The notes beneath the pieces are model-generated. The model was given only the letters and a program-made list of their open reading frames with translations. It searched no databases and had not been told where the DNA came from. Source: Candidatus Latescibacterota bacterium (GTDB lineage: Bacteria > Latescibacterota > UBA2968 > UBA8231). Taken from it: a DNA stretch of 64,000 nt. Where the stretch lies: the NCBI GenBank assembly GCA_965200315.1, contig OZ241362.1:2176001-2240000 (forward strand), given 5' to 3'. The position numbers were made by a program, and so were the translations under genes. Each line of letters starts with the position of its first letter. The stretch's first letter is position 1. Below are positions 6,290-46,781 of this stretch, piece by piece.

Positions 6290-8770
6290 TCAGTACGCGC
6301 TAGCGACGAGTTTGGCACTCGTCGTCTGTCCGCCTTCGGCATCTACTTCCACGCCGACGCGACACACGTACAGTCCCGGCGGTAGCAGTCGGCCCTGTTG
6401 GTCCCGCCCATCCCAAGTCAGCCGCTGAACCCCCGCGGCGGTCGCGACCGCCTGTTCAATGCGCTGTACCGACTGGCCGTCTAGGCCATAGACTTCCAGA
6501 ACCAACGCCTTGGCACCCTGCACTTGGAACACCGGAAAGACCAATTCCACCACGTCATTGATCCCGTCCCCATTGGGCGTAAACGGATTTGACGACGCAG
6601 CCACCTCGCCTAAAGCGGCCTTGGTAAAGGGCGTGAACACGGTCAGGTGGCGGCCCGCGTCGACCCGCTGCCACACTTGGTCGGCCCCTTGTCCACGACC
6701 GACTTGCACCTCAAAGGCATTGCTAACCAAGTAGAGTTCGCCAGCAAAGCGCAGCGACACGACACCCGGCCCCTGCTCAACCGGCTTGGGCAACCTCACC
6801 CACAGCGAATCCGGGCCGGTCGGCAGCCGCTCGAACTGATCGCGTCCGTACTGCTCTTCACCCACGGCTCCGTCGACCAAGTCCATCTCCGCGCCCGGCG
6901 GCAGCTCCACCAGCACTTGGTCGAACCCGCTGTTCCCGTCTTGGAACGCGGGCCGCAAGCGCAAGGTAAACGTCTGAGGTTGCCCGCGCTGAGACGCTCT
7001 GTTGGGGGCGATCTCGCCGAGAATTTGGCTGGCGAGGGGCGCGTCTAGCGCAAGGCGCAGTGAGCTTAGCAGCACGGCCGCGTCTGGATCGTCCGAGCGC
7101 AGAATAGCCTCGATCATCACGTAGCGGCGCGGACTCGGCGAGGTGATGGGCGCACCCGAGGCCGAATAAGGCAGACTCCACGGGCTCCAATCCTCACCGG
7201 GAATGATGGTGATAGTCGAATCGCCGCGCTGGAAGCTGAGCAGTTTGCGGTACTTGGCCTCGGTCACTTCTTGGCCGGTGCTCGAAAAGTAGCGGATGTT
7301 CTGGCCGAGTTGGTTCCCGCTGCGGGTGCGGACGCGCACTTGGGTGCCGGGCGGCGCATCGGCCGTCCACTGCACGGATGACAGAACGCGGGCGGCGCGC
7401 CCCAATTCGATCGGCTCAGATGTGAGCGATACCTCGGGGAGAAAGCCGCGTCCGTATAGCTGTATCTCGCGGATGGCCGGGCGGGCCGACCCCCGGACCA
7501 AGGTGTAATTCATCCTGAAGTAACGCGCCTTAGTCAGCGAAAACACATTATCCTGAAAGAGAATATTGCGATGCGCGGTTCCTTCTCCACCCTCCAGACC
7601 GCGCGCCGTCAACGCGACATAGCTCAAGCTGCCGTCCGGTGCGCGGCTGCCATCGGAAAGCGCAATCGCGTAATTGGGAAACGCTCGGCTATATCTATCG
7701 CCAAAGACGATGGCGACGCGGTTGACCCAATACCAAGTTCCCAAGTCAAAATAGATATTGCGATGCGGATCCTGAAATACAACCGCCGGATCGTTGCCGC
7801 TAAAGCCCACTTCCACACTCCAAAAGGAGCCCCACTCGCCATCTACGGTTAGCTTTTCCGCGCCCAAGTTGCCGTAGCCGATAATCTCCCCGCCGCGGTC
7901 CAAGGCACCAAGGCTAATGTTGTCGCCCGCGGTCCACACCTCGACTTCGGTCAGCCGCGGCCGCTCCCGGCGATAGTATTCGACCGGGCCTTGCCATTCC
8001 GCCGCAATGGCCTCGTATGCCGCTCGGTCTATCGGTCGCAAAACGCCGCTCGACTCGCGGCGGAAGTAGAGCACATCGCCGCGATCTTCCTCCGGTAGAC
8101 TATTCCAGCGCACGGCACTGATTTGCTCGGCTTGCCCCAAATCGCTGGCCGTCGCCACCACCTGGAGAAACTGAATCAGACGACCGGTAAGCCCCGGGTC
8201 CACTTTGCGGGTAGGCTGCAACTCAAACTCATAGACGCGCTGCGATTTGTTTAACCCCTCGCTGTGGCCGGCGGGCAGGTAGCTGAAGGATTCGCTTTGT
8301 AGGAAGGCGGGATCGCCGTTGGCGGTGAGCACCTTGAACTGGAGGAATGGATCGCCTTGGCCTTCCGCGGCGAACTTCACCAACACCTTCTGAGCCCACA
8401 CCAGCCGCCCCAAGTCGATTTCGATCCACCACTTGTCGAGTGGGTCCGCCAAGTCCGGTTCCCAGAAGGTATCCTCCCGGCCATCTAAGATATTGGCGGC
8501 CCCCGTTAGGCCGGTTCCAGCACTGCGGATGCCGCCCTGCGCCCCATCTCCATAGGTGAACGCGCTGGCGTCCAAGGCGGCGTTGACCTGATCGCGGACA
8601 AAGGCGGGCTGGACGCCTTCATCGCTGAAGTCCAAGCTGCCCGGCGGAAAGCCCCACTCCGGCCAGTGCTCCGGAGCGACGTTCAACTCCTTCGCGTCGA
8701 GTTGGTACGCTTGGCACCACACCGCCGATGCCGTCAGCAGGATTGTCCCTACAATCGCAACGCTTTTCAT
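6290..8770 (-). CDS. Secreted discoidin-like domain protein with C-terminal FlgD-Ig / gliding-motility (type B CTD-like) domain, long form
   Basis: Signal peptide; ANILDGREDTFW, WIEIDLGR, WSPWS, SPSPRRY and NPFTPNGDGIND...WDGRD...PPGLY motifs; ends ASAY. Confidence 0.8.
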   Translation of the reverse strand: MKSVAIVGTILLTASAVWCQAYQLDAKELNVAPEHWPEWGFPPGSLDFSDEGVQPAFVRDQVNAALDASAFTYGDGAQGGIRSAGTGLTGAANILDGREDTFWEPDLADPLDKWWIEIDLGRLVWAQKVLVKFAAEGQGDPFLQFKVLTANGDPAFLQSESFSYLPAGHSEGLNKSQRVYEFELQPTRKVDPGLTGRLIQFLQVVATASDLGQAEQISAVRWNSLPEEDRGDVLYFRRESSGVLRPIDRAAYEAIAAEWQGPVEYYRRERPRLTEVEVWTAGDNISLGALDRGGEIIGYGNLGAEKLTVDGEWGSFWSVEVGFSGNDPAVVFQDPHRNIYFDLGTWYWVNRVAIVFGDRYSRAFPNYAIALSDGSRAPDGSLSYVALTARGLEGGEGTAHRNILFQDNVFSLTKARYFRMNYTLVRGSARPAIREIQLYGRGFLPEVSLTSEPIELGRAARVLSSVQWTADAPPGTQVRVRTRSGNQLGQNIRYFSSTGQEVTEAKYRKLLSFQRGDSTITIIPGEDWSPWSLPYSASGAPITSPSPRRYVMIEAILRSDDPDAAVLLSSLRLALDAPLASQILGEIAPNRASQRGQPQTFTLRLRPAFQDGNSGFDQVLVELPPGAEMDLVDGAVGEEQYGRDQFERLPTGPDSLWVRLPKPVEQGPGVVSLRFAGELYLVSNAFEVQVGRGQGADQVWQRVDAGRHLTVFTPFTKAALGEVAASSNPFTPNGDGINDVVELVFPVFQVQGAKALVLEVYGLDGQSVQRIEQAVATAAGVQRLTWDGRDQQGRLLPPGLYVCRVGVEVDAEGGQTTSAKLVASAY

Positions 8771-8788
8771 GCAGCACCTAATGGGAAT

Positions 8789-8865
8789 CAGTGGTCAGTG
8801 ATTCAGTGGTTGGTTTCCCTAGCACCACTTCCGGGGGGCGGGTCGTGCCTGACCACTAACCACTA
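8789..8865. repeat. Heptamer (CAGTGGT-like) short tandem repeats in inverted arrangement
   Basis: CAGTGGTCAGTG...CAGTGGT followed by CTGACCACTAACCACTA; same family at 41615-41663. Confidence 0.6.
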
Positions 8866-9987
8866 TTAATGTGGATCGCCCACGCGCCAGCGGTGCTTTT
8901 CCACCCCATCCATGTCAAGCTCTATCCCAAAACCCGGGCCTTCCGGCAGCACAATGCAACTATCCTCCACTCGCAGCGGCTCGGTGATAATCTCGTCCCG
9001 CCACGCAATGCCGGTGACGAACTCCATGGGGGCCACATTCGGTATGGAGGCCATCAAATGCGCAGCTGCGATGATGCCGACCGGGCCTTTGGTGTTGTGC
9101 GGCGATATGGGAACGTGAAAGGTATCGGCAATGGCCGCGATTTTGCGCACCTCGGTGATCCCACCGGCGTACATCAGGTCGGGTTGTGCTACATCAATGC
9201 CATCTAGGTCCAACAATTGGCGGTAGTGGCTCTTGGTATTGAGCCGCTCGCTGCCCATGACCGGAATGGAGATTTCCCGCCGCACTTTTGGATAGGCATT
9301 CAGATCGTCCGGCGGCACGGGGTCTTCAAACACGTATAGATCGTACGACTCTATGGCGCGGGCCAAGCGGATGCACTGGGCCACCGTGAAGCGGCCGTGG
9401 CAATCGATCAACAGCTTGGCATCCGGCCCCACCACTTCTCGCACTGCGGCGAAGTGCTCTGCCGTCTCTGTCGGATGGCCGTCGTCCGCGTACTGACCAA
9501 AGTCGTGCCCGCGCCGCGACCGCGCTCCGCCCTTGAGCGCAGTGTACCCCTCTGCTACCTTTCCCCGCGCCATGTTCGCCGAATCCTCGGGCGTGGCACC
9601 GCCAAAGTGCGTATAGACCTCGACTCGGTCGCGGAACTTGCCGCCCAACAGTTCGACCACCGGCAGGTTCGCCACCTTGCCCTTGATGTCCCACAGCGCT
9701 TGGTCAATGCCGCTCATGGCGCTCATCCACACGGGACCCGCCATGCGCCAGATGCCGCTCAGCGAGGAGCGCAGATAGAGCTTGTGCCACAAGTACTCGA
9801 TGCGCGCCGGATCTTCGCCGATCAACTCCTGTTTGAGATGCTCGACCGCAGCTACGACCACCGGCTCCTTTTGGGAATACGTGGCCTCTCCCAAGCCCAC
9901 GAGGCCCTCGTCGGTAAAGACCCGCACAATCGTCCATTTGCGGCCCGGCGAGTCGATTAGAATGGTATCAATATCGCGTATTTTCAT
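8866..9987 (-). CDS. Enolase-superfamily acid-sugar dehydratase (mandelate racemase/galactonate dehydratase DgoD-like)
   Basis: GLGEA, SGIDQALWDIKGK, DCHGR, FEDP, GSERL, QPD and PHN motifs; start taken at MKIRDID. Confidence 0.88.
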   Translation of the reverse strand: MKIRDIDTILIDSPGRKWTIVRVFTDEGLVGLGEATYSQKEPVVVAAVEHLKQELIGEDPARIEYLWHKLYLRSSLSGIWRMAGPVWMSAMSGIDQALWDIKGKVANLPVVELLGGKFRDRVEVYTHFGGATPEDSANMARGKVAEGYTALKGGARSRRGHDFGQYADDGHPTETAEHFAAVREVVGPDAKLLIDCHGRFTVAQCIRLARAIESYDLYVFEDPVPPDDLNAYPKVRREISIPVMGSERLNTKSHYRQLLDLDGIDVAQPDLMYAGGITEVRKIAAIADTFHVPISPHNTKGPVGIIAAAHLMASIPNVAPMEFVTGIAWRDEIITEPLRVEDSCIVLPEGPGFGIELDMDGVEKHRWRVGDPH

Positions 9988-10196
9988 CGGTTCCCCATTT
10001 TTTTGCAAGATAGGCCAGCATGAAAACTCAATATATTAGTCTCATGGATTTACTCAAGGCGTTTCTCGACTCACAAGCCTGTATTGACCATTTTGTCAAG
10101 CTGTAGTGGCCAGACGGCATAGCCTGCCCGGATTGCGAATTAGAGAAGATTTATATCTGTAAGCGGTGTTTTTGTTGTGGGGATTGCAAGAACAAC

Positions 10197-11270
10197 TCAG
10201 CGACGCAGACGACCGTTTTCAAGCAAACAGTCGAACACTTCTTGCGCCACAGTGCTAGCTACTTCTTGGTAAAAATCATCGAGAACAGGTGCCTTGTCCA
10301 TCTCAAAAGCCGTATTGACGGCGTGCCACTTATTCAACACCTCTTTGTCCTCAGACACATCCTTCATCACCAACAGCGCGGCGGTGCTTAGCTTGAATTG
10401 TTGCTGGTTGCGATCCTTGCCGACTGAGTACGAGTTTGCCACGTAATCCAAGGTATAGCGAGCGTCCTCAATAGATGCGATATCCGTAGTCCAATAGACG
10501 CGCCTGAACCGTTTGAGCTCGTCCAAGAGGGCCGGTCGAATGGACTCATGCAGTGCAAGGAGCTTTTCCTTTTGTATATCCTCCTGACGCGAAGAGGTCT
10601 TAAATATCTTGGAAAAGGTCCTGTCGTCTATAAATACAAAGTGGCCCAATATGCGACCTTTGTGTCCTTGCTTGATAATTTTACTGGCCTGTAAGTCCCC
10701 ACTATTGCTCGTCTTCACCAACACCTTAAAGGTTCCAGTCGGGGCGTTTACCGCGCCATCATCCGCTACCGGCTCTTCCGCCACCGGCGATCCGACGAAT
10801 GGAACTAGCAGTGCCGCGGTATAATCCAAGGCTTGGAACTTGAGCAGCTTGCTTTTGCCCGCCGCTTGCGCGATCAGCGGTTCCAACCCAACACTCTCTT
10901 CTTTCTTCAACAGGTCGCCGGCCATATCCACGACCCGCACCAAATACGCCTTGGCTTCGCGCTCGGAAAAATGCTCCCCGTGCAGCGCAAAAAGTTGTTC
11001 GCCGAGGGCCGTGGATTTCTTGCAATGAGTCTTTAAGTCCCGCAATAATGAGACCAAAGAATCCCGGCTCACAGCAGCCGACAATCCAGACGCGGTACTA
11101 ACATCCGCGACGAACTCGTCCAACGTTCCCTTGTCGTCTCGCTCCATGCGGTCGCGCAACTGATCCAAAGCCACGAGCACAAAACTCGTCTCCTGTGCAG
11201 AAGCGGCCAAAATACTCGATGCCATGGAGAAAAAGACGCAAATAGCAAGGCGACACCATGTGTTATTCAT
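10197..11270 (-). CDS. Secreted hypothetical protein
   Basis: 357-aa ORF with signal peptide, starting 15 nt downstream of the DUF6785-like gene; no recognisable family. Confidence 0.65.
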   Translation of the reverse strand: MNNTWCRLAICVFFSMASSILAASAQETSFVLVALDQLRDRMERDDKGTLDEFVADVSTASGLSAAVSRDSLVSLLRDLKTHCKKSTALGEQLFALHGEHFSEREAKAYLVRVVDMAGDLLKKEESVGLEPLIAQAAGKSKLLKFQALDYTAALLVPFVGSPVAEEPVADDGAVNAPTGTFKVLVKTSNSGDLQASKIIKQGHKGRILGHFVFIDDRTFSKIFKTSSRQEDIQKEKLLALHESIRPALLDELKRFRRVYWTTDIASIEDARYTLDYVANSYSVGKDRNQQQFKLSTAALLVMKDVSEDKEVLNKWHAVNTAFEMDKAPVLDDFYQEVASTVAQEVFDCLLENGRLRR

Positions 11271-11285
11271 CTATATATCCTCTTG

Positions 11286-13271
11286 TCAAATCTGCGTCAG
11301 AAAACTGCCCACATGCCCGGTAATGTAATCGGCCACCAGCCACGCGCCGGCCGCGGCCACTTCCCCGAGGATCAGCCCTAAAAAAAACGGACGCAGGCTC
11401 CGATATAGCCGCGGCCCCCCATACTTGAGGATCACTAGCTTGAGCAGCCAAGCTATGAGCGCACTGGCAAAAATGTGGCCGGTCTTCCAGTTCGCGCTGA
11501 TGGCGTAGCCGAGCGGATTGAGAGGCCACCACAACCAATGGTGCCGCACCCACATCAGCACGGCCATCACCCCGCCGCCAATCGCCATAAAAGACCAAGC
11601 GTCGAGTCTTGGGCCGGTCAATTCCGCCGCAATGCGCGGAGCCATGTCCTTGGGGCCGTACGTAGCGGCTCCCCAACCAAAAAACAGGCCGTTGAGATTG
11701 ATGCCGCCGTATTTGTACGCCAACGCCATGGTGACGTACGAAGAGCCGACCAAGCTGACCACAATGGCGATGATCACCGCCCAAAACAGCCGCCGCTTTC
11801 CGCCCTTGATTACCTCGCTCATCTTCAGGCCATTGGCGACCGACGACATGACAAACGAGCGGATCTCCGAGTGCCAGCCATAGGAAAATCCCAAGGCCAC
11901 CAAGCCAGAAGCCCCCAAGCTCGAAGCCCCGGCACCGGAAATCACAAAGGTCGAGGTCATAATGGGGGGGCGCATCGCCGGAATGCCTCCTTCGGCGACC
12001 ACTCGTGTCAGCCCCAAAAACAGCACCATGGCCCCAAAGATAAACAGCGCCACGCCCAACGGCGGCAACCCAGCCATCCACAGCCCCAACCCCACCAAAC
12101 CGAGCGACGCCAACAAGCCGAAGGTAGCCTGCCGGTACGACATAATTTCGTCGGCATCTTCTACATCTAAGTCGCCGTACCACGCTTTGCGCCACACGGC
12201 CTGCAAGTGCCCGCGCGACACCCACAGCCCGATCAGCACGAAAACGATCATCGCCCCCATGCCTTGGTGGGCTATGTACGGCTCCCGCGAGTACAGATCC
12301 ATCCGCTCTGTGCTTTGCAGGCCGAGGACGTTGAAGACGCCCCGTTGCACTGTGGTGAGGATGTAGAATACCCAGATGGACGCGGAAATATCCAAGTTGA
12401 CGAAGTAAAAGAAGCCAATCCAAGGCGGGCTAAACCACAAGTCCAAACGCACGGTATCGCGAAACAGGGGGAGCGACGCGGTCCGCGCAATCCCGGGCAC
12501 CTCCGGGAAATAGGCGTGCAATCCATTGACGCTGAGCAAGACAAATGCAAACGCAAACCCCAGCCACATCGCCTTATTGGTAAAAAACTCCCGCCCAATA
12601 GCGCGCCCTTGCTCGCGCTGAATCATTTCCATCGGCACCTGCACCAACGGATACGCCAGTTTCTCTCGATCTACCCATTGCTTGCGCAGGATGACCATCG
12701 TGCAAATCATCGCTGCGCTGAGCACCAAGAAGAACCCGTACCAATAGGTCAGCGGCAGCACCCACGCTGCCCAGGGAATGGTAGCCCCCTCGGGCAGCCC
12801 TTCAAAAAAGTAGCGCGCCACGTTTTCGCCGCGCGGAATCATCCACGTGGGGATGTACTGGTTGTATAAAAAGTCCCAGTTATTCTCCGGCGTCGCATAG
12901 TACGTAGAGCCGACCAGACAGGGAATGATAAATTGGGTAAACCCCATCCCGGGAATGCAGCAGGCGACCACCAGCATAATGTAGATGGTAATCAGTTCGG
13001 ATTGGGTCAGGGCCAAAGAGCGGCGCAGGCAGTACACGAGGCCGCTGGCAGGTACTAAAAAAAAGAAGAAGAATAAGGCGGCCGGCGTACTAAAATTTAA
13101 GGTCAGGTACGAGCCGCGAATGATGGTCGTGGCGTACGCGTCTAAACCATTGAGCAGCAAGGCAAGCACCGCGCCGAGCAGGATGCCCCGCACGGGGATG
13201 CCGGCGACATCCTGCTGTCCTTCCTCCTCTTTCACCCACTCGAGGTATGCTGGAGGAATTTGTTTTTTCAA
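11286..13271 (-). CDS. DUF6785/DUF6784-like polytopic membrane protein (putative OPT-like transporter)
   Basis: Many TM segments; YYATPENNW, LRKQWVDREKLAYPLVQVP, RVVAEGG, WWPLNPLGY and LYRSLRPFFLGLILGE motifs; paralogue of 37015-38955. Confidence 0.8.
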   Translation of the reverse strand: MKKQIPPAYLEWVKEEEGQQDVAGIPVRGILLGAVLALLLNGLDAYATTIIRGSYLTLNFSTPAALFFFFFLVPASGLVYCLRRSLALTQSELITIYIMLVVACCIPGMGFTQFIIPCLVGSTYYATPENNWDFLYNQYIPTWMIPRGENVARYFFEGLPEGATIPWAAWVLPLTYWYGFFLVLSAAMICTMVILRKQWVDREKLAYPLVQVPMEMIQREQGRAIGREFFTNKAMWLGFAFAFVLLSVNGLHAYFPEVPGIARTASLPLFRDTVRLDLWFSPPWIGFFYFVNLDISASIWVFYILTTVQRGVFNVLGLQSTERMDLYSREPYIAHQGMGAMIVFVLIGLWVSRGHLQAVWRKAWYGDLDVEDADEIMSYRQATFGLLASLGLVGLGLWMAGLPPLGVALFIFGAMVLFLGLTRVVAEGGIPAMRPPIMTSTFVISGAGASSLGASGLVALGFSYGWHSEIRSFVMSSVANGLKMSEVIKGGKRRLFWAVIIAIVVSLVGSSYVTMALAYKYGGINLNGLFFGWGAATYGPKDMAPRIAAELTGPRLDAWSFMAIGGGVMAVLMWVRHHWLWWPLNPLGYAISANWKTGHIFASALIAWLLKLVILKYGGPRLYRSLRPFFLGLILGEVAAAGAWLVADYITGHVGSFLTQI

Positions 13272-13314
13272 GGCCGTTTACCTCGATCATGGTTCAAATC
13301 AGTACCGATTCCTC

Positions 13315-13431
13315 CAGTAGGGACAGACACATACAGTAGGGACAGACACATAGGTCTGTCCCTACGAATATGTCGCCGTTTCCGTGTGAATGATTTATGT
13401 CTTCGTAGGGGCGAACCGATGTGTTCGCCCT
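13315..13431. repeat. GTAG-family REP-like palindromes
   Basis: 19-bp direct duplication CAGTAGGGACAGACACATA; palindrome GTAGGGACAGAC..GTCTGTCCCTAC; second palindrome GTAGGGGCGAAC..GTTCGCCC. Confidence 0.7.
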
Positions 13432-13502
13432 TTTATCCGTTCTTCTTAGATGAGTACGCCAGCTAAACAATAGGCCACCGATGTGACTTCGAGCCGTGCA
13501 AA

Positions 13503-16022
13503 TCAGTACGCGCTAGCCACGAGTTTGGTGATCGTCGTTTGCTCGCCTTCGGCATCGACCTCCACGCCGACTCGGCACAGATACAGGCCCGGCCGCGTCA
13601 GGCGGCCCAGATCGTCTCGCCCGTCCCATGTCAAACGCTGCACTCCGGCGGCATGCGCCACCACCGGAGCCATTTGCCGCACGCGCTGGCCGTCTAAGCC
13701 ATACACCTCTAGCACCAACTCCTTGGTACCCTGCACAGCGAACACCGGAAACACCAATTCCACCACGTCGTTGATCCCGTCCCCATTGGGCGTAAACGGA
13801 TTGGATGACGCGATCACCTCGCCCAACAGCCCGCCGCTAAACGGGGTCAACACCTGCAAACTGCGGCCGGCACCGGCATCCACCCGCTGCCATACCCGCT
13901 CATCGCCTTCGCCCAACCCCACCTGCACGGCAAACGCATTGCTGGCGAGGTAGAGCACACCGGAAAATTGCAGCGCCACGAACCCCTCTCCCTCCGCCAC
14001 GGGCGCGGGTAGCTGCACCCACAGCGAATCGGTCCCGGCCTTTACCCGCGTGACTTCTTCTGGCCCGTAGCGCACCCGCTCCGCACCCACAACCACTTCC
14101 TCCAGATCGACCGCCGCCCCTGACGGCAACACCACTAGTACCTGGTCGAAGCCGCGATTGTCGGCTCGGAACTGCGGCTGCAAAGACAGCGTGAAAGTCG
14201 TGCGCTCCCCGCGCTGCTGAGTCTGACGCGGCTGCACTTCGCCTATAACTTGGCTAGCCAAAGGCCAATCCAACGCAATGTGCATCCGGCGCAACAACAC
14301 CCCGTGGCCGGGGTCGTCCGAGCGCAGCGTGGCCTCCACTATGGAGTAGCGGCGCGGGCTTGGCGAGGTAATCGGCGCGCCCGTGGCCGTGTAGTACGGA
14401 CTCCAAGAGCTCCAGTCGGCACCGGGAACCACCGAGATAGTCGAATCGCCCCGCTGAAAGCTGAGCAACTTGCGATATCTGGCCTCGGTCACCTCTTTTC
14501 CGGCCTTGGTGAAGTAGTGGATTTCCTCGTCGAGCTGGTTGCCAGTGCGCGTACGAAATTGCACTTGGGTGCCCGGAGGGGCGTCGGCCGCCCAGTGAAT
14601 GGAAGACAGGATGCGGGGATCACTGCCCAGTTCCATAGGTGCCGATTGAAGCGTCACCTGCGGCAGGAAACCGCGACCGTAGAGCTGGAGCTCGCGAATG
14701 CCGGAGTTGGCCCAATTCGGGACGATGAGCACGCGGTAATCCATCTTGAAGTAGCGCGCTCTAGTGAGCGGAAAGGCATTGTCCTGATAAAAAATGTGGG
14801 GGAACAGCCCACTGAAGCGGCCCGGCTCTATGTCGGCGGTTTCTCGCATGGCCAGCGCAACGTAAGCCAAGCTGCCGTCCGGGTTGCGCTGGCCATTCGA
14901 GAGGTTGATGGCGTAATTGGGAAACGCGCCGGTAAAGCCGTGAGCGATGTTTTCGCGGTCAAAGCCGATGACCACTCGGCTGATCCAGAACCAAGTCCCC
15001 AAGTCGAAGAGGAGCTCGCGGTCGAACTCCACGTCGATGTGCTCGACGCCGCTGACGCCCACTTGCTCGGTCCACACGGTCTTGTAGTCGCCGTCAATGG
15101 CCAAGCGCTCCGTCCCGGTGTTGCTCGTGCCCCCGATCAACCCACCCCGGCTCAGCGAGCCCAAGCTGATATTGTCGCCCTCGGTCCACACCTCCACCTC
15201 GGCCAGCCGCGGCCGCTCCCGTCGATAGTACTTTATCGGGCCAGCGCGTGACTCGCTCAGTGCTGAGTGCTGGTCTTGGTCAATCGGCCGCAAAACGCCC
15301 GAGGACTCGCGCAAGAAATAGAGCACATCGCCGCGTTCTTCCTCTGGCAAGCTGTTCCAGCGGCTCTCGCTGACTTCGTGCCCTTGGCCGCGCGCACTAG
15401 CCGTGGCCACGATCTGGACGAACTGGAACATGTCGCCGACAAAGCCCGCGTCCGCTTCCTGTGCAGGCTTCAGATCAAACTCAAAGACGCGCTGAGTCTT
15501 GTTCAAGCCCTCGCTGCGGCCGGCCTGCGTGAAGCGGATCGCCTTGCTCTGGGAGAAAGCCGGGAGGCCGTTGGACGTGAGCACCTTGAACTGCAAGAAA
15601 GGGTCGCCCATGCCTTCCGGTGCGAATTTCACCACGATCTTGCGCGCCCACACCAAACGGCCCAAGTCGATCTCGACCCACCAATCGCGTAGGGGCGCTT
15701 CTACATCCGGCTCCCAGAAGGTATCCTCTTGGCCGTCTATGACATTCGCGGCCTCAGCTAAGCTAGTGCCCGCCGACCGGACCCCACCCTGTACGCCTTC
15801 TCCGGACACAAAATTCGGAGCGTCTAGCACGGCGTTGATTTGCTCGCGGATGCGGTGCGGTCGCACCCCTTCTGGGCCCAATTGCACCGTACCTGCGGCT
15901 ATCTCCCATTCCGCCCAGTCGCCCTCGTCAACGGCAACCCGGTCCAATTCGAGGCGGAATCCCTCGGGCCACGCCGCCGCCGCGATCAGCAGGGCGCAGG
16001 CAATGAGCCACAACCGAGTCAC
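13503..16022 (-). CDS. Secreted discoidin-like / FlgD-Ig type B CTD-like protein, long form; close paralogue of 6290-8770
   Basis: Same motif series; ends ASAY. GTG start at 16022 overlaps the upstream stop (GTGA) and gives signal peptide VTRLWLIACALLIAAAA. Confidence 0.8.
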   Translation of the reverse strand: MTRLWLIACALLIAAAAWPEGFRLELDRVAVDEGDWAEWEIAAGTVQLGPEGVRPHRIREQINAVLDAPNFVSGEGVQGGVRSAGTSLAEAANVIDGQEDTFWEPDVEAPLRDWWVEIDLGRLVWARKIVVKFAPEGMGDPFLQFKVLTSNGLPAFSQSKAIRFTQAGRSEGLNKTQRVFEFDLKPAQEADAGFVGDMFQFVQIVATASARGQGHEVSESRWNSLPEEERGDVLYFLRESSGVLRPIDQDQHSALSESRAGPIKYYRRERPRLAEVEVWTEGDNISLGSLSRGGLIGGTSNTGTERLAIDGDYKTVWTEQVGVSGVEHIDVEFDRELLFDLGTWFWISRVVIGFDRENIAHGFTGAFPNYAINLSNGQRNPDGSLAYVALAMRETADIEPGRFSGLFPHIFYQDNAFPLTRARYFKMDYRVLIVPNWANSGIRELQLYGRGFLPQVTLQSAPMELGSDPRILSSIHWAADAPPGTQVQFRTRTGNQLDEEIHYFTKAGKEVTEARYRKLLSFQRGDSTISVVPGADWSSWSPYYTATGAPITSPSPRRYSIVEATLRSDDPGHGVLLRRMHIALDWPLASQVIGEVQPRQTQQRGERTTFTLSLQPQFRADNRGFDQVLVVLPSGAAVDLEEVVVGAERVRYGPEEVTRVKAGTDSLWVQLPAPVAEGEGFVALQFSGVLYLASNAFAVQVGLGEGDERVWQRVDAGAGRSLQVLTPFSGGLLGEVIASSNPFTPNGDGINDVVELVFPVFAVQGTKELVLEVYGLDGQRVRQMAPVVAHAAGVQRLTWDGRDDLGRLTRPGLYLCRVGVEVDAEGEQTTITKLVASAY

Positions 16023-16732: not shown

Positions 16733-16746
16733 AGGGGCCTCCTTTT

Positions 16747-18717: not shown

Positions 18718-18729
18718 AGCCTCAGCCCC

Positions 18730-21426: not shown

Positions 21427-21454
21427 TGTGCGTCGTCCTTTGTTTATTTCCGCG

Positions 21455-23179: not shown

Positions 23180-23237
23180 ATCGCCTCTTGGGAGAGTTGC
23201 GCTTCACCGGATCAATCAGTTCAGTACCTTCAACAGG

Positions 23238-23513
23238 CTACTGGGTGATAGCAAGCCGGATGTTCAGTGTATCCAGCACTTTAAAGAGCGTGTCAATGCG
23301 CGGGTTTCCCTCGCTGGATAGCGCACGGTACAACGCCTGCCGTCCTAGACCGCTGGATTCGGCGATCGAGGACATTCCCTTGGCCCGGGCGACATTGCCG
23401 AGAGCCTTGGCGAAGTACTGCGGATCGTTTTCTTCTAGCACTACGTTGAGGTATTCAATCAACGCCTCATCGTTATTGAGAAAATCGATTACGTCGAATT
23501 TTTTGAGCTTCAT
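23238..23513 (-). CDS. Putative addiction-module antidote protein (HTH, HigA-like)
   Basis: FDVIDFL...ALGNVARAKGMSSIAESSGLGRQALYRALSSEGNPRIDT. Confidence 0.9.
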   Translation of the reverse strand: MKLKKFDVIDFLNNDEALIEYLNVVLEENDPQYFAKALGNVARAKGMSSIAESSGLGRQALYRALSSEGNPRIDTLFKVLDTLNIRLAITQ

Positions 23514-23811: not shown

Positions 23812-23817
23812 AGGCGC

Positions 23818-31499: not shown

Positions 31500-31533
31500 C
31501 GAAATCGCTCCTTTTTTAAGTATGCCGCACAGC

Positions 31534-35037: not shown

Positions 35038-35050
35038 AGCCTCTCCTTTT

Positions 35051-36964: not shown

Positions 36965-37014
36965 AACAATTCCCTCACTATTTGGCGAAATATAGCCCGT
37001 TTTCACCCAGCACC

Positions 37015-38958: not shown

Positions 38959-41598
38959 CTATACCCCGCCGGTGGCAGCGAAGATGCGGACGAAGACGAT
39001 TGATTGCTTCTGGGTTTGCTCCGCGAAGAATTGGCGCTCTAGCAGGAAGCCCGCGTTCATGGTCAGCTCGTACCCTTGATAGGACGACACATTGGTCAGC
39101 AGGGCCGAAAACACGAGGCTGCGGAAGTCATCGATATAGCTCGGCGACGCCTCGGCTGGACGCTCGACCAAGTTCTCAAAGAGGCTGAATTCAACGCCGA
39201 AGTCCAAGAGCGTCTTCGGCAGGAGCACGTACTGGCCCAAAAAGAAAAAGCTCTCAGTCAGTTCGTTGGATTCCAAACCGACCAGCGCGGTGGGGGTTTC
39301 TCGCTCGTACATACTCTTCCACTTGGGATAGAGAGCGAGCCGATCGCTGGGACGGAAGGAGTAATCGGCCTTGTTAATTAGGCCCCAAAAAGAGCGGTCG
39401 CGCTTTAGGTTGGCCTGCGCACCGAGCTGATTGAAGCGCTCGTACTTCAGCTTGCCTTCGAAGTTCAGATTGGCAATGCGAAAGTAGCGGGCCTGCACGT
39501 ACAGCGAGTTAACAAAGGTATCTTGGTTGTCGAGCGGATCGGCAAAATCCGTCAGGCCGATGGGGTCGCGCCAGACGATGCGGTCCTCGGGCAAGTTGTC
39601 GGCCACTAGTTTGGCGTGTTGAAAAAGGGCCACGTCTAGCCCGGGATAGGATTTTTCCAAGGTCAGCAACCCGTAGAACGAGCGGCTCGCGCGGTCGCTG
39701 CTCAGTTGGTGCTCGGCGAGCCGGCCGACGGTCAGCCGGGAACTCTCGGTGATTTTTAAACCTCCGTACGCGTTGTACCCGCGATGGTCGCGCTCGTAGG
39801 GATAGTCGGGCAGGCGGTCGTCCTCAAAGCGGTCAATGATCGTGTTGTTGTTCATGTCCATGCCAAAGAGAAACTCCGGCGGATCGACCTGATAGCGCAG
39901 GAAAGGCTCGACGTAATCCGGGCGGCTGTTCTGGTTTTGGTTGAAGTCGGAGATAAAATCGTTGTTCTCGTCCAGCCCGGGAAAAATCTCGGTGTCGCGG
40001 CCCTGCGAGCCGCCCTCGCCGCCGAACCCCTGACTCTGGCGATAGCGTTGCCAATCTGTGTAGCGATCTTGGTCGTCGTTGTCATCGACAAACTCAAAGA
40101 GGTTTTGGGTCTCGCTGGCGTAGTCGATGACCCCACCCGGGTCGGCGATAAAGGCCGTGGTGCTGTAGTCGGGATCTATGGTGAACACCTCGCCGTACGC
40201 AAAGAAGGGGTAGCGCTGGTAAGAGGCCGTCGCGTACCCGGCTTCGGCCGTTTCCTTATAAGCGGGCAGCTTGCGGAAGTTCTGATTGGGGAAGCGGCGG
40301 AAGCGGCGATTGAGGGCCCATTCGGCCCGCAAGTCGAAGTGGGCGAGGTTGATCAGTTCCAAGTCCATGCCGATCACCTCGTGCCCGGTCGGCAGGCCGT
40401 AGGCAAAGCGCACAAAGGTCTGATTGGAGCCATCGGAGATCTCGTCGCGGGCTTGGGCCACCGGCAAGAAAACCTGCTCGCCCCGGGCATTGGTCTGGAG
40501 ATTGGAGGCGATCTCTATGCGGTAGTCATTGGACACCACCAGCTCGAATTCGAGCTTCTTGGCCTCGCGGAAAGTGCCCACTTTTTCGGTTGGGCTAAAA
40601 TCGTTGCGAATGTCGTAGATAAGCTCAATTACGTCCGAGCCGCTCACCTCCAAGATGCCCTCTCGCCGCACACCGCCGCGCACCAAGGGCACGATCTCCG
40701 GGTGCAGCTCTCCGTCGATGATCACCTGATCGACGAAAAACGAGGCCCCGGTTTCCTCGGATTCGGGCGAATCGTCGGCAATGCGGATGATGACCCGTTC
40801 GACATTGCCCGTGTTCTGCGGGCCAGTCAGCAGGCCCTTGAGCGAGTTGTCGCCGAGGCTCAGCTCGCTGCTGGTATTGGACACATTGACCCACGTCAGA
40901 CCCAGCTTGGCGAAATCGCCCACTTGGGCCACGCCGCGCGCCCCGAGCAGGCGGGTCGTGTTTTCGATCGCCGACGCTCCCCCGGCCTCGTTGAGGGCGG
41001 TAAACCCCGGCGCGTTGAGGCGCGAGCCAAGGAGGGTCAGCGCGTATTTGTCGGCGAGAAAATCCCACTGCAACCCGTTGAACGTGGGCTTGGAAAAGGT
41101 CAGGGGGGTGAGCGTCGTGCGGATGGCGTCGCCCACCGTCAGGGAAGTGTGGAACTGGCCGTGGCTGGCCGACGAGATGACGAGGCTGTCGAACCACCGG
41201 CCAAAGCGGGTGCCCTTCAACAGGGCGCTGCCTTGGCGCAGAGGACTGGTTTCAGTCCAGTCGTAGATGACCCAGCCGCGATTGATGTACTGGCCGAAGA
41301 GGTTGTAGTTGCGGGTGCCTTCGAGCAGGATGTTGACGTAGCGCTGGTAGTGGTCGCGCGCGTAGTTGCTGTACTCCCAGCCGCGCCACTGGTATTCGTA
41401 GTACAGATTCTGCGGCAAGTACCACTTGCGCCGGTTGGGCGCCAAGGCACCCGGATGGATGCGCACCCCGCGAATCCCGGGTTCCTCAACCGGCCGAAAG
41501 CCCGTAGACAGCTGGGCAAAAGCCGTGGATTCCGAGAGTATAAACGCGCACCACAACAGCAAGATCGGCCCTCTGCTACAAAGGGTTATCAGCCTCAT
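38959..41598 (-). CDS. Uncharacterised ~880-aa secreted/outer-membrane protein; paralogue of 18730-21426
   Basis: Shares WY.PQ.LY..Y.W..WEY.NYARD.YQRYV, IRTTLTP.TFSKP.F.G.Q.DF..DKY, DDNDDQDR and FGMDMNNN..IDRFE with the first copy. Confidence 0.75.
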   Translation of the reverse strand: MRLITLCSRGPILLLWCAFILSESTAFAQLSTGFRPVEEPGIRGVRIHPGALAPNRRKWYLPQNLYYEYQWRGWEYSNYARDHYQRYVNILLEGTRNYNLFGQYINRGWVIYDWTETSPLRQGSALLKGTRFGRWFDSLVISSASHGQFHTSLTVGDAIRTTLTPLTFSKPTFNGLQWDFLADKYALTLLGSRLNAPGFTALNEAGGASAIENTTRLLGARGVAQVGDFAKLGLTWVNVSNTSSELSLGDNSLKGLLTGPQNTGNVERVIIRIADDSPESEETGASFFVDQVIIDGELHPEIVPLVRGGVRREGILEVSGSDVIELIYDIRNDFSPTEKVGTFREAKKLEFELVVSNDYRIEIASNLQTNARGEQVFLPVAQARDEISDGSNQTFVRFAYGLPTGHEVIGMDLELINLAHFDLRAEWALNRRFRRFPNQNFRKLPAYKETAEAGYATASYQRYPFFAYGEVFTIDPDYSTTAFIADPGGVIDYASETQNLFEFVDDNDDQDRYTDWQRYRQSQGFGGEGGSQGRDTEIFPGLDENNDFISDFNQNQNSRPDYVEPFLRYQVDPPEFLFGMDMNNNTIIDRFEDDRLPDYPYERDHRGYNAYGGLKITESSRLTVGRLAEHQLSSDRASRSFYGLLTLEKSYPGLDVALFQHAKLVADNLPEDRIVWRDPIGLTDFADPLDNQDTFVNSLYVQARYFRIANLNFEGKLKYERFNQLGAQANLKRDRSFWGLINKADYSFRPSDRLALYPKWKSMYERETPTALVGLESNELTESFFFLGQYVLLPKTLLDFGVEFSLFENLVERPAEASPSYIDDFRSLVFSALLTNVSSYQGYELTMNAGFLLERQFFAEQTQKQSIVFVRIFAATGGV

Positions 41599-41663: not shown

Positions 41664-41919
41664 CAAGAAAAGCGAGTGCCTTCGGCTGACAATATACGCC
41701 TCGTACCCACTGCTTACCAAGTCAGCACCGCGCTGCTGCGCTGGCAAAAACGGCATTTTCTCGCAGCAAATTTGTTTCGCCTGTATGTGCTTTTTTGTTT
41801 ATAATGTAGAATCACTTCAGCATTATCGTCTATCCGAAAGGAGGTTGCACCGCTTGCTGAACGACGATTCCATATTCCTTTTTCCTTTTTCTATTTCTTC
41901 CAATCAAGGAGCGTATAGT

Positions 41920-42831
41920 ATGAGAAAGTTCGGCTTTTTCGCCTTGTCTTGCGGGCTGGCGTGCTTGCTTAGCACGGCCGCTTTTGCCCACGTTGGCGTG
42001 ACCGTGTTCTATCCCCAAGTGCCCGATCCGGCTGCCATCACCATCGACGGCAACGACGACGACTGGGGTTGGTACGACCCAGCTCTCGCCCTCAATCAGC
42101 CCGACTTCTTCGACCGAGCCAGCGATTTCGTCGAGTTGACGGACTACGACTTCACCATCCTCAACGGTTGGTCGGCACCGCCGGACAACAAGTGGTACGG
42201 CTTTGCTCGCTTTGTCGATGACACCCTCAAGTACGATTCGCCCGTCAAGGAATGGTGGAAAGACGACTGCTTGCAGATCACCGTTGACGCCGATCACCTC
42301 GGCGGCAATATCCTCGGTTCCGACCTCGAGCAGATCGCCAATGGCCAGCGCTGGCACGTGCGCATCTTCCCGCCGGCTGGCGAGTCCCTGTTGCCCAACC
42401 AGACCTGCTTCTTCTACAGCCAGCTAGAGTTCATCGACTCCCAAGAGCTGCTGTGGGGAGTGGAGCCGGAGTTTTTCGAGGCCGCGTGGACCGTCCTGCC
42501 AGCGGGTGCCGAGAACCTGACGGTTGGCCCGGTTACGTACACCTATGAGTGGCGGGGTGCCCTGTGGGACATTTGGGGCCTAAGCGAGAGCGAGAGCACG
42601 CGGCACACGTTCGCCGAGGACGACGTGATCCACCTCGGCTATCGCCCGCTCGACGCCGACCGCCCCGGCGGTGGACGCAAGCACTCCATGTACATCAACG
42701 ACGGCAGCCAATCGCAAGACGTCGACGCCTCGCAGATGCCCGACTTCTGGGCGCTGGCGGCGACCGAGACTAACGTGGAAAACGACACTTGGGGCCACAT
42801 CAAAAACAGCATGTCCCAACGCCTCAAGTAA
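41920..42831 (+). CDS. Secreted CBM9/DOMON-like protein with short C-terminal T.VE..TWG.IK motif
   Basis: AAGGAG RBS; signal peptide MRKFG...AFA-HVG; ends TETNVENDTWGHIKNSMSQRLK. Confidence 0.72.
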   Translation: MRKFGFFALSCGLACLLSTAAFAHVGVTVFYPQVPDPAAITIDGNDDDWGWYDPALALNQPDFFDRASDFVELTDYDFTILNGWSAPPDNKWYGFARFVDDTLKYDSPVKEWWKDDCLQITVDADHLGGNILGSDLEQIANGQRWHVRIFPPAGESLLPNQTCFFYSQLEFIDSQELLWGVEPEFFEAAWTVLPAGAENLTVGPVTYTYEWRGALWDIWGLSESESTRHTFAEDDVIHLGYRPLDADRPGGGRKHSMYINDGSQSQDVDASQMPDFWALAATETNVENDTWGHIKNSMSQRLK

Positions 42832-44645: not shown

Positions 44646-44774
44646 AAAACCCTAGTTTGAGAATGCTTCTAAGACATCGAGAAACCGCCGAAAATGGCCG
44701 AAATCAAAAAATGTGATAAAACCCTAGCCTGCGAGGAAGGTGGGAGCCTTTTTTACTCTTCCTTGTTGCGTCGG

Positions 44775-46781
44775 ATGCGATGGGCGCTGTTGGCTTGTGC
44801 CGCGCTGATGTGTAGTCCCGGGGCGGCGCAAGAGTGGTGGCAACTCGGCGGGCAGGGCGGCGTTTCGCCGGCGGACGTGGCGGATTTCAGCCTGATGATA
44901 GACAACGCAGCCGCTTCCCACGCACTCCAGCCCTTTGAACTCGACCCGAGCGAAAACATCTTGCCCCAGCTCGGCCCTTGGCAGCGCTGGCGCTTTCCCA
45001 CCGACCCGCAATTCCGCCCCGGCCATCCGCGCTTTTGGACGGACATCAACCACAACGTCCTGTACAAGGCCACGGAAACCTTTCTCTTCGTCGATGGGGA
45101 CTCGACCACGTACGTGGAGCGACGCGACGATAAGCAGATTTTCTATACCATTGACTTGGGCACTCAAGTGCCGGTAGAGCGCTTTGTATTTTTTCCGCCC
45201 GAAGGCGTCAGCCCCGAAAGCGACGAGCCTTTCAAGCCCAATTACATCCTCAAGTCCTATAGTCTGACGGCCGCCCAAGCCGAGACCGGCATTATGCAAG
45301 AAGAAATAGAGCGCGGGTTCGTCTGGCGGGGCGATGGGCCGTGCTGCCCGCTGGCCATCCCCCTCGGCTACGAGGAGCGCAATGCCGACGCGGAGACCGA
45401 AATCGCGTTTCCCACGCAATACCTCCGCTTCTTCCGCCTAATCGCCATTCCCGACGGATTCACCCTGTACGGCGATCCCATTGTCACGCGCTCGGCCTTT
45501 GCCGAGATGGAAATCTATGGCCGGGGCTTCGCTCCGCAGGCGACCTATGAGTCGCAGATCATAGACTTGGGGCGGGAAGTCAACTTCGGACAGGTGCGCT
45601 TGTCGGTGAGCAGATGGCGCAAGGACGGGGAGCAACTGCTGCCGTCCGGCGGCCCAACCCGCGCCCAAGTGGAAATTCGCACCGGGCGCGACGACACCCC
45701 AACAGCTTATTTCGGCTTTGACGATCTGGGTGCCCATGTAGAGGTGACCAAGAAGCAATGGGATCGACTAATACCTCTAGAGACGCGCGGCGCAACCATA
45801 GCGGTCGGCTTCCGCGGTCCGGTGGCCGAGGATCTGAAAAACTGGAGCTTCTGGTCGCTGCCGTTGGCGGACTCGGGCCAACATCCGCGCCTGCCGTGGG
45901 GCCGCTACTTCCAATTGCGCGTACAGCTAGCAACAGACGCGCTGTGGGAATTTGCCCGCCTCGATTCCCTGCAAATCGAGATCGCGCCCCTGCTGGCCGA
46001 CCGGGTCGTCGGCGAGATCGTCCTCGCGGCGGAACCTCACCCCCAAGGCGGACAAGTGCGCGTCCCAACGGGCGAGCAAACCCCATTCACGTACGACCTA
46101 GGCGTGGAATTTGCCAGCGCGGACCGCATCGGCTGCGACGCCGTGCGCATCTCAGCACCAGCGGAAGCCGCATTTCGCTATCTGGAGATGGGCGACCCGC
46201 TCAGCGTTGTAGAGCCGGATAGCCTGCGGCGTGAGGCAAGCGGCTTTGTGCTGTTCTTGCCGCGCCCCCTGCATCCGAGCGGCGATCAGCGGCTGCGCAT
46301 CGGCCTCGAAGCCGTGCTGTACGGCGAGGCCGGCGAATTTGGCGGCGAGGTTTTCAACCGCAGCGAGCCCAGCCTGTTGCAGCGCGTCGAAGGAGGAGAC
46401 GTCAGCGCGGAGCTAGGCTCCAACCAGTTGCTCGTCGTAGCGTCTGCCGCCTCCACGGGTGGGGTGCTGGGAGACATTGAGGCCGGCAGCGGCGCGTTTA
46501 CCCCCCAAGGCGACGGCGTAAACGACCTGTTGTCCATCCAATACACCCTTTTCCGGGTGCGGGAGTCGTCTCAAGTGCAGGTTGGCGTGTATGCGCTCGA
46601 TGGGCGGCCGATATGGGCAGCGGATCCAAAGGTGCTGGGCGCAGGACGCCATGCAGTGCTTTGGGATGGCCGGGACGCGGCCGGGCAGTTGGTTCCCGTA
46701 GGCGTGTACTTGGCGCGAGTGGAAGTGGAAACGGATAAGGGGCAAGAGGTGCGGATGCAGCCAGTGGCCGTGGCGTACTAG
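44775..46781 (+). CDS. Secreted discoidin-like / FlgD-Ig type B CTD-like protein, short form
   Basis: Signal peptide MRWALLAC; FVDGDSTT, IDLGTQVPVER, SQIIDLG, WSFWS and AFTPQGDGVND...WDGRD motifs; ends AVAY. Confidence 0.8.
   Translation: MRWALLACAALMCSPGAAQEWWQLGGQGGVSPADVADFSLMIDNAAASHALQPFELDPSENILPQLGPWQRWRFPTDPQFRPGHPRFWTDINHNVLYKATETFLFVDGDSTTYVERRDDKQIFYTIDLGTQVPVERFVFFPPEGVSPESDEPFKPNYILKSYSLTAAQAETGIMQEEIERGFVWRGDGPCCPLAIPLGYEERNADAETEIAFPTQYLRFFRLIAIPDGFTLYGDPIVTRSAFAEMEIYGRGFAPQATYESQIIDLGREVNFGQVRLSVSRWRKDGEQLLPSGGPTRAQVEIRTGRDDTPTAYFGFDDLGAHVEVTKKQWDRLIPLETRGATIAVGFRGPVAEDLKNWSFWSLPLADSGQHPRLPWGRYFQLRVQLATDALWEFARLDSLQIEIAPLLADRVVGEIVLAAEPHPQGGQVRVPTGEQTPFTYDLGVEFASADRIGCDAVRISAPAEAAFRYLEMGDPLSVVEPDSLRREASGFVLFLPRPLHPSGDQRLRIGLEAVLYGEAGEFGGEVFNRSEPSLLQRVEGGDVSAELGSNQLLVVASAASTGGVLGDIEAGSGAFTPQGDGVNDLLSIQYTLFRVRESSQVQVGVYALDGRPIWAADPKVLGAGRHAVLWDGRDAAGQLVPVGVYLARVEVETDKGQEVRMQPVAVAY

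Follow-up and report, generated by a model that had tools for sequence, protein, structure and literature searches.

Latescibacterota are widespread in sediments, waters and sponges; we know of no cultured member and of no account of how these bacteria take up food. What, then, is the role of the two arrays of largely unnamed envelope genes that lie within a 64,000-nucleotide stretch of a Candidatus Latescibacterota genome (contig OZ241362.1, positions 2,176,001 to 2,240,000; hereafter the window, numbered from its first letter)? The original prediction, made from the letters of this stretch, had described the arrays as four uncharacterised families forming a trans-envelope system. Here we report that they are two copies of a module that recurs throughout the genome and that has at its core a giant predicted outer-membrane (OM) barrel protein (B), three proteins with a C-terminal sorting-type domain (CTD; C proteins), a small secreted protein (s) and a SurA-like rotamase (R). 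We propose that the modules may encode a surface capture and uptake complex of the OM that is assembled by the type IX secretion system (T9SS).

Two paralogous arrays in the window

Two paralogous arrays were confirmed in the window (G+C ~60%) by all-versus-all BLASTP of the translated open reading frames (ORFs) and by hidden Markov models (HMMs), and the four families of the original prediction are true paralogues, in two co-oriented arrays, at the places it had given them. The two B genes, each encoding ~900 amino acids (18730-21465 in copy A and 38959-41598 in copy B, both on the minus strand), are 41% identical over 850 residues, and the two genes for DUF6785+DUF6784 proteins (D; 11286-13271 and 37015-38955, both minus) are 40% identical over 647 residues (Pfam E-values of 9e-127 and 1.4e-29 in copy A and of 3.5e-114 in copy B). 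The seven C proteins are mutually alignable over their full common length, and Pfam assigns them F5/8-type-C domains with FlgD_ig or CHU_C. Three secreted s proteins of ~300 residues are also related, those at 31534-32496 and 41785-42831 being 50% identical and that at 23952-24836 more distant. When the window proteins were scanned, B and s matched no Pfam family and no NCBIfam family. Neighbouring genes in the arrays overlap or are separated by 3-12 bases (for example at 21455/21465, 37015/37018 and 38955/38959).

In copy A, the minus strand carries, in the direction of transcription, the CBM9-like s gene (23952-24836), with promoter-like and terminator-like sites of its own; a short C protein of class a0 (21455-23179; Pfam, BLASTP and tree), which overlaps the start of B by 11 bases; B itself, with a signal peptide, a conserved N-terminal region of ~150 residues and an Asp-rich conserved insert at ~539-627; a short C protein of class b (16747-18717; FlgD_ig 1.5e-8, CHU_C 1.2e-5, and a discoidin/CBM32-like region by profile), the tail of which matches the PorU model at 995-1084; a long C protein (13503-16052; Pfam F5_F8_type_C and FlgD_ig; class L, support 1.0) that consists of a discoidin N-terminal extension, a core and a FlgD_ig-type tail; and D. 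Further along the same strand lies an additional long paralogue (6290-8770; Pfam, BLASTP and tree), 60% identical to the protein at 13503-16052. Divergent from s, on the plus strand, is the R gene (24961-26889; Pfam Rotamase_2, Rotamase and Rotamase_3; family HMM 571.8 bits), and at the other end an FG-GAP/UnbV_ASPIC (CRTAC1-like) accessory protein is encoded on the minus strand (3926-5557; Pfam; family HMM 706 bits).

In copy B, the minus strand carries B (type II clade in the B tree; HMM 1100.9 bits), D (Pfam and BLASTP), a short C protein of class a1 (35051-37018) and a long one (32662-35073), both placed by Pfam and tree, and an s gene (31534-32496; BLASTP and the Pfam matches of its homologues). 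The plus strand carries a second s gene (41785-42831), a second class a1 C protein (44694-46781; Pfam and tree), a lipoprotein that we call f (49670-50692), a type II member with the lipobox L-x-G-C (family HMM 326.8 bits; alignment), an R gene (50692-52377), an FG-GAP/ASPIC gene (52435-54081; family HMM, 43% identical to 3926-5557) and a tetratricopeptide repeat (TPR) protein (54109-55659), the R and TPR genes being recognised by NCBIfam scan and family HMM. Because of these extra members, copy B is read as having two divergent arms and as extending to 55659.

The original prediction had therefore placed its families correctly but drawn the arrays too short, since copy A also takes in the rotamase and ASPIC genes and copy B continues through f, rotamase, ASPIC and TPR; its inventory of four families had overlooked all four of these. 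Its division of the CTD proteins into long and short forms holds as to size, but the short ones carry a discoidin-like domain as well.

Modules of constant composition recur throughout the genome

The genome is a single 5.36-Mb contig, in which ORFs were called and searched with HMMs built from the window paralogues. This identified 42 B ORFs (37 of at least 800 amino acids), 41 D and 31 s ORFs, while 144 ORFs matched the C model, 108 of them over more than 60% of its length. The 37 full-length B genes form 25 blocks, or 27 when fragments are included. All 37 have a C-family gene within 10 kb (mean 0.40 on random placement), 22 an s gene and 24 a rotamase gene (random mean 0.10 for each), so that the clustering greatly exceeds what chance would give. 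Together, B, D, s and all CTD-family ORFs take up 543 kb, or 10.1% of the genome.

Additional families were found by clustering the unlabelled neighbours of the modules and scanning representatives against Pfam. Near modules lie 24 of the 26 members of the R family (~560 residues, two PPIC rotamase domains, SurA-like), 12 of the 13 members of the f family (~250 residues, no Pfam match, lipobox L-x-G-C in the alignment), 19 of 27 TPR proteins and 24 of 42 FG-GAP + UnbV_ASPIC proteins. A tree of the 108 full-length C proteins separates class L (39 members, support 1.0, median length 830 residues) from the short classes b (19), a0 (17) and a1 (23), and modules combine one class L protein with two short ones: b and a0 in type I, and two a1 proteins together with f in type II. 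Compared block by block, copy A of the window is of type I and copy B of type II. The core of a module thus comprises one or two B genes, one long and two short C genes, s and R, often with f, TPR and FG-GAP/ASPIC genes.

The B tree splits as the C classes do, so that B clades track module type, and where two B genes stand in tandem they come from different clades, each with support of 1.0. A divergent group with its own B clade (type III) combines two or three B genes with C proteins that fall in none of the classes; its blocks lie at genome positions 1355481, 3920853 and 4827849, next to DUF4159 proteins and TPR proteins of ~1090 residues that include a YfiO/BamD-like part, one block also having ExbB/ExbD. 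The constant composition and the matching B and C trees are what would be expected of parts that cooperate physically, and we infer that they probably do.

The module is conserved in related genomes

Among 8000 candidates scored, 932 B homologues were found at E <= 0.001, none of which carries a Pfam domain or a name beyond 'hypothetical'; they come from Latescibacteria/Latescibacterota and some Gemmatimonadota metagenome-assembled genomes (MAGs). An exhaustive search with the B profile yielded 1017 clusters (50% identity). In species-representative genomes, 520 relatives were found by a scan, and the 80 loci kept were mostly titled Candidatus Latescibacterota, along with some Gemmatimonadota/Gemmatimonadaceae, one Handelsmanbacteria and one Planctomycetota. 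HMM labelling showed that gene order is kept across these loci, and the copy A order (R< s> C> B> C> C> D>), for example, persists even where B identity has fallen to 68%. Among the 61 loci that span 20 kb or more, three or more C genes are present in 60, s in 52, R in 47 and D in 34, the loci in both sets being drawn from kindred genomes and hence not independent samples. The neighbourhood co-occurrence that the original prediction had proposed to look for is therefore borne out by gene order in related loci.

Protein B models as an outer-membrane barrel

In an AF2 model (mean pLDDT 65, pTM 0.60), B forms ~30 long antiparallel strands and is confident at ~190-535 and 634-909, whereas the conserved N-terminal ~130 residues were modelled below pLDDT 50. 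All of the leading Foldseek matches are OM barrels, namely MtrB (E 4e-7), SlpA (9e-7 to 3.5e-6), LptD (1.7e-5), ushers and TonB-dependent receptors, with low TM-scores of 0.2-0.36; VIA likewise gave Z-scores of 12-15 against many barrel families, none of them prominent. As the matches are generic and none stands out, B models as an OM barrel of no identified family, in keeping with the OM location that had been proposed for the ~900-residue protein. Most B paralogues terminate in ...F-I-T-V-Y-A-G-L.

Sequence searches did not place B in a known family. There was no Pfam or NCBIfam match at E 0.01 and no Pfam match at E 10, profile searches of PDB sequences returned none for B or for a divergent B, and the genome's 13 PF00593 matches all fall on genes other than B. 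Searches of the ESM Atlas with B and with the C core retrieved clusters of their own kind only, the nearest named one for B being DUF6029 (score 0.89), which we treat as a lead. SlpA_C (PF21620) was considered and set aside as an assignment: five of 18 distant B relatives scored 16.8-21.7 bits and, as the sole match in this genome, a divergent type III B scored 22.7 bits, all below the cut-off of 35, and the PDB profile searches were empty; the likeness in fold stays as a lead only.

A side observation concerns the Asp-rich insert. In each of four sequencing runs (DNA and RNA), one contig joins over an 84-base skip at window positions 19743-19828, the shorter side of the joint being just 20 letters, and Tandem Repeats Finder detected no repeat there. 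The skip may mean that the insert varies in length, or it may stem from a paralogue or from the assembly.

C proteins resemble cargo of the type IX secretion system

A profile of 33 short C proteins matched FlgD Ig (6.5e-9) and the CBM32/discoidin modules of glycosidases, including those of a GH31-associated protein (4lks, 6e-6), GH89 (4a41, 1e-5) and a sialidase (8e-5). FlgD_ig and CHU_C matches were found by Pfam on all seven C proteins of the window, and the tails of four of the seven match the CTD region of the PorU model at E <= 0.01, aligning to model positions ~995-1093. CHU_C reaches its cut-off of 27 in some C proteins (27.4 bits at 44694-46781; 33.1 bits in L012), while the type B CTD model TIGR04131 scored 19.2 bits against a cut-off of 35. 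The genome encodes SprA (496.6 bits), PorU (615.1 bits) and an adjoining PorV-like protein whose 149.8 bits are below the cut-off. TIGR03519 (PorP/SprF) had no match in the genome and was silent in all of the control genomes as well. By their sequence, then, the C proteins fit the description of T9SS cargo, with an Ig-like sorting domain at the C-terminus and the machinery present in the genome, as the original prediction had suggested. A 601-residue FG-GAP protein in the window (1019-2824, minus strand) ends in the same FlgD_ig-type tail, which indicates that the tail is shared with cargo outside the C family.

The accessory proteins s, R and f

A profile of 36 s sequences matches the CBM9 module of Thermotoga maritima Xyn10A (1i82, E 1.9e-6) over profile positions 42-161. 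Pfam CBM9_1 gave 15.3 bits on one of the three s copies (cut-off 23.4), and PF06452 is carried by three of 35 s homologues. At its C-terminus, s often bears a tag, [ST]AVE-x2-[ST]WG-x-[IVL]K-x2-[FY], which is present on 23952-24836 (as ...TAVE..WG.LK..F) and 41785-42831 and absent from 31534-32496. Across 4388 ORFs, W-G-x-[IVL]-K occurs 50 times, 41 of them within 20 residues of the C-terminus, in 24 s proteins and 17 other small ORFs. No transmembrane helix follows the tag, and literature searches for its motif, judged from titles and the openings of abstracts, found nothing related. Judging from these patterns, the tag may be a new sorting or docking signal.

In R, PPIC domains were found and no match to the SurA N-terminal model was among the matches listed. 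For lipoprotein f, there was no Pfam match, and its PDB sequence profile gave chance matches only.

D is a facultative neighbour with a predicted transporter fold

The AF2 model of D (pLDDT 75.6, pTM 0.79) matches barley Yellow Stripe 1 (YS1) over the whole chain, both by VIA (7wsr_A, Z 24.3, root-mean-square deviation 3.9 A over 549 residues; next best Z 6.8) and by Foldseek (E 7.5e-9, TM 0.63/0.68). On the basis of this match D models as an OPT/YSL-fold secondary transporter of the inner membrane, which gives the inner-membrane protein of the original prediction a predicted fold. The likeness to YS1 (7wsr, 7wst) extends over the whole protein (Z 24.3, TM 0.63-0.70), but identity is 12-13%, and Pfam returned no OPT match for D at E-values up to 10, only DUF6785, DUF6784 and a chance GLTT repeat; its PDB sequence profile likewise gave chance matches only. 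Unlike OPT/YSL transporters, D is expanded to ~35-40 copies per genome and has sugar oxidoreductases and dehydratases as neighbours, not genes for peptides or metal chelates. In a search for DUF6785, this genome gave 39 matches, whereas 14 control genomes gave none.

D lies within 10 kb of eight of the 37 full-length B genes (random mean 0.12, random maximum 0.32), and 27 of the 35 full-length D genes have no B within that distance. The B profile and DUF6785 (E <= 1e-30) were each sought in one set of 121 genomes of the phylum, all at least 80% complete. The B profile was found in 70 of them, comprising all 45 of the window's own family and, weakly (E 1e-18 to 1e-66), all 11 of the family labelled f10, and was absent from families f2 (0/29), f3 (0/16), f4 (0/2) and f8 (0/4). 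DUF6785 was found in 110, including every genome of f2, f3, f4 and f8 (6 to 68 first-look candidates each) and none of f10. D thus occurs without B in 51 genomes, and B relatives occur without D in 11. The claim that DUF6785 is an integral member of the system does not survive these separate phyletic patterns and the distance of most D genes from B: D is a facultative neighbour of the modules, not an obligate subunit.

D genes standing alone were found in two settings. In one, the neighbours are GFO/IDH/MocA proteins, aldo-keto reductases, SDRs, PhyH dioxygenases, HpcH aldolases, enolase-superfamily enzymes and GH116; in the other, D stands beside M28-MacB_PCD-FtsX fusions of ~1500 residues. 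These neighbourhoods suggest that D is a general importer of sugar-type solutes and speak against a fixed fourth subunit. At genome positions 4023783-4033000 and about five further places, the M28/MacB periplasmic core/FtsX fusion beside DUF6785 is accompanied by a protein of ~700-1000 residues without a Pfam match.

Flanking genes and RNA coverage

Within six genes of B, 122 unlabelled ORFs of at least 150 residues were collected, 107 of which were scanned here and 15 separately. Recurrent among them are TPR proteins, of which some carry the GT-C domain PMT_2 as a fusion; transporters, namely sugar-type ABC binding proteins and permeases, SBP_bac_5 and MFS; and the enzymes PhyH, MR_MLE, Amidohydro_2 and xylose-isomerase-like TIM barrels. 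Also among the recurrent items are a sulfatase, an FGE-sulfatase, GDSL esterases and a 3-keto-disaccharide hydrolase domain, while GH116 was seen only beside a lone D gene. Some families are large for a 5.4-Mb genome (GFO/IDH/MocA 56, MR_MLE 54, FG-GAP/ASPIC 42 and SDR 38), and PhyH is carried by the scanned representatives of three clusters (34, 28 and a smaller one); this set of outsized families points to the breakdown of sugars by oxidative, non-phosphorylative routes.

Three metatranscriptomic runs of one study contain an 8-kb stretch of copy A almost entire (0.95-0.99 of sampled words); the study also includes a DNA run, labelled sponge metagenome, that may underlie this assembly, and runs of a second study contain the stretch too. 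Contigs placed on 5600-25500 cover 30 of 30 bins in four runs, three RNA and one DNA. Depth of the DNA contig over copy A is flat (147-166), while that of RNA contigs is uneven, reaching 95.5 over 21070-24883 against 14.9-23.7 elsewhere in library X1 and 163 over the s gene against 13.6-25.9 alongside in library X6. RNA contigs end at 24835-24883, whereas the DNA contig continues. A sigma-70-like site lies upstream of s (24936-24907, minus strand, 11/12), and a 14-bp hairpin with a T-run (23923-23889) lies downstream of its stop codon. These data hint that copy A is transcribed, with s in excess; of the metatranscriptome check that the original prediction had proposed, coverage by RNA-library contigs was obtained, but contigs do not define transcripts.

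Between s and the class a0 gene of copy A lie a Gp49/DUF891-type (HigB-like) ORF (23473-23925, minus) and a small ORF (23238-23513, minus). As the hairpin falls inside a long N-terminal extension of the former, the true start of that ORF is probably further downstream.

Comparison with known outer-membrane systems

Like polysaccharide utilization loci (PULs) of the SusC/SusD kind, the modules exist in many diverged copies per genome, each with one large OM barrel and predicted surface proteins of carbohydrate-binding type, and some loci have transporters and sugar enzymes nearby. They differ in that B shows no TonB-dependent receptor, plug or SusC signature by sequence, in that the C proteins are T9SS-tailed and not lipoproteins, and in having a SurA-like chaperone of their own but no glycoside hydrolase (GH) or polysaccharide lyase (PL) in the scanned flanks. 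SusD (PF07980) had no match in the whole genome, which is 94.7% complete, and the Bacteroides thetaiotaomicron control was positive. The view that the system contains no SusC/SusD is upheld accordingly: SusD was not found and B is not a TonB-dependent receptor by sequence.

With T9SS cargo and its OM barrels (PorU-PorV, PorZ-PorQ, and type B CTD proteins with PorP/SprF), the modules share CTD proteins encoded beside an OM barrel, tails that resemble the CTD of PorU, and a genome with T9SS core genes. However, B has ~900 residues and ~30 strands and no match to the PorV model (the PorP search gave no information), the genome carries its PorV-like genes at other places, and each barrel is accompanied by three cargo proteins plus s, f and R. 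The giant filled or capped barrels LptD-LptE, MtrB-MtrA and Deinococcus SlpA (30 strands) lead the Foldseek results for B, and in those systems, as in the modules, a small secreted or lipoprotein partner (here s and f) is encoded alongside; against this stand the TM-scores of 0.2-0.36, the sub-threshold SlpA_C scores, the lack of a PDB sequence match, the lack of an SLH domain, and the lack of a link to lipopolysaccharide or cytochrome genes.

Possible roles in capture and uptake, display or export

We read the modules as T9SS-assembled surface capture and uptake complexes of the OM, a tentative reading to which we give a probability of about 0.45. The C proteins would be exported by the T9SS and retained at the surface on or beside B, where glycans or glycoconjugates would be bound; B, whose folding its own R chaperone would assist, would let the captured material through the OM; s and lipoprotein f would serve as a cap, a plug or a receiving part, either in the periplasm or associated with the barrel; and the ~25 diverged copies would differ in specificity in the way that PULs of Bacteroidota do. 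The inner membrane would be crossed in a separate, exchangeable step, by DUF6785 or by the ABC, SSF and MFS transporters of the flanks. Several observations weigh against this proposal. For the ~300 residues at C profile positions ~225-520 there was no match, and they could have a catalytic or adhesive role. The model of B is moderate (pLDDT 65) and leaves unmodelled both residues 33-163, the conserved N-terminal region, and residues 539-627, the invariant Asp-rich insert. B has no recognisable plug or TonB box by sequence, and ExbB/ExbD was seen beside one block only, of type III, so that a source of energy for uptake is missing. The scan of 107 flanking ORFs revealed no classical GH or PL family, and catabolic families show no clear enrichment around modules (GFO 13/56 and MR_MLE 9/54, against a background of 14.5%). 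Finally, the RNA evidence consists of contigs of one study, in which carry-over of DNA is possible and from which transcripts cannot be defined. A strict PUL reading was rejected on the GH/PL and enrichment results, and the modules are PUL-like just loosely; of the capture and import proposed originally, the sugar-type importers often present in the flanks are in favour, but import is called into question by the same enzyme results, and uptake stays inferred.

The chief rival, which we hold to be rather unlikely, confines the modules to surface display or adhesion: B would be an anchor or shuttle for T9SS cargo that keeps its CTD, and lectin-like C proteins would attach the cell to sponge matrix, particles or other cells, with no transport involved. 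Analogues exist, since PorV holds PorU, PorQ holds PorZ and SprF serves SprB, and the idea is favoured by C tails that score best where the PorU model covers the CTD of PorU itself (~995-1093), by CHU_C, a type B signal, at cut-off in some C proteins, by scanned flanks without CAZymes and a system without energy coupling, by the adhesion-type discoidin, FG-GAP and TPR domains, and by the sponge metagenome label of the source. Yet a B of ~30 strands is far larger than the 14-strand FadL-like anchors, the module also occurs in MAGs whose titles carry no sponge label, importers and sugar-acid enzymes are often found in the flanks, and the PorP/SprF search, silent in the controls, is uninformative here. 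Much less probable is a four-family trans-envelope system in which DUF6785 is the fixed, dedicated inner-membrane partner that evolves and acts with the barrel. Although D sits inside both window arrays (with a 4-base overlap at 37015/37018), in 34 of the 61 related loci of at least 20 kb and within seven genes in 13 of the 27 blocks of this genome, just eight of its 35 genes lie within 10 kb of B, others stand far from B beside M28-MacB/FtsX fusions and sugar oxidoreductases, and the 121 genomes include 51 with D and no B and 11 with B relatives and no D. Slightly less probable still is export, in which B and its TPR and GT-C (PMT_2) neighbours would secrete or modify a surface polymer or glycoprotein in the manner of AlgK-AlgE, PgaA or BcsC. 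TPR proteins are enriched near modules (19/27), as is a TPR+PMT_2 fusion family (8/10), and VIA gives Z-scores of 11.7-13.3 for AlgE, PgaA-type and BcsC barrels; however, these matches are no better than those to porins and ushers, no synthase, polymerase or flippase recurs in modules, and three lectin-type T9SS proteins per barrel are left unexplained.

Other features of the window

Between and beside the module genes, an enolase-superfamily (MR_MLE) dehydratase-type enzyme is encoded at 8866-10008 (minus; Pfam 7.8e-64), an Amidohydro_2 protein resembling L-fucono-1,5-lactonase at 30669-31604 (minus; Pfam, the lactonase match being below the NCBIfam cut-off), and a sugar-type ABC importer of two permeases and an SBP_bac_1 binding protein at 26802-30133 (plus; Pfam). 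G+C falls to 0.46 at 48000-50000, against ~0.60 elsewhere, over the small ORFs 47566-48438, a lipoprotein-like coiled-coil protein, and 48691-49257. Within 59945-63833 (minus), a 745-residue protein with weak SusC N-terminal and BtuB-like matches, one of the PF00593 matches of the genome, stands between two paralogous TPR proteins that are 43% identical.

Implications for Latescibacterota

Full-text searches, judged from titles and the openings of abstracts, returned no description of the module and nothing on DUF6785, DUF6784 or type IX secretion in Latescibacterota, and to that extent agree with the view of the original prediction that the system was not recognised as described. Because the hallmarks of SusCD PULs and of TonB-dependent transporters were not found by sequence, the SlpA_C scores are sub-threshold and no description was found in the literature so searched, we rate the gene system as a new kind; the function given to it here is proposed.

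About a tenth of the DNA of this genome is devoted to the B, D, s and CTD families, and the modules include families with no Pfam or NCBIfam name or PDB sequence match, namely the barrel, lipoprotein f and the core of the C proteins. DUF6785/DUF6784 now has a testable assignment, as an OPT/YSL-fold transporter with sugar-catabolic neighbours, and the short ...WG.IK.. tag at the C-terminus is a candidate for a new signal in sorting or docking. Should the modules prove to be uptake machines, multi-copy, substrate-specialised OM systems would have arisen outside the SusCD/TonB design, and the T9SS would have a new role as the assembler of such machines. A bolder form of this reading, which we regard as doubtful, is that the modules are a third independent solution to nutrient acquisition at the OM in the FCB superphylum. 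The Latescibacterota counterpart of SusCD would then be a plug-less giant barrel with three T9SS-delivered lectin-type subunits and its own SurA-like chaperone, in ~25 specificities per cell, served by an expanded OPT-fold DUF6785 family that would import oligosaccharides or sugar derivatives rather than peptides.

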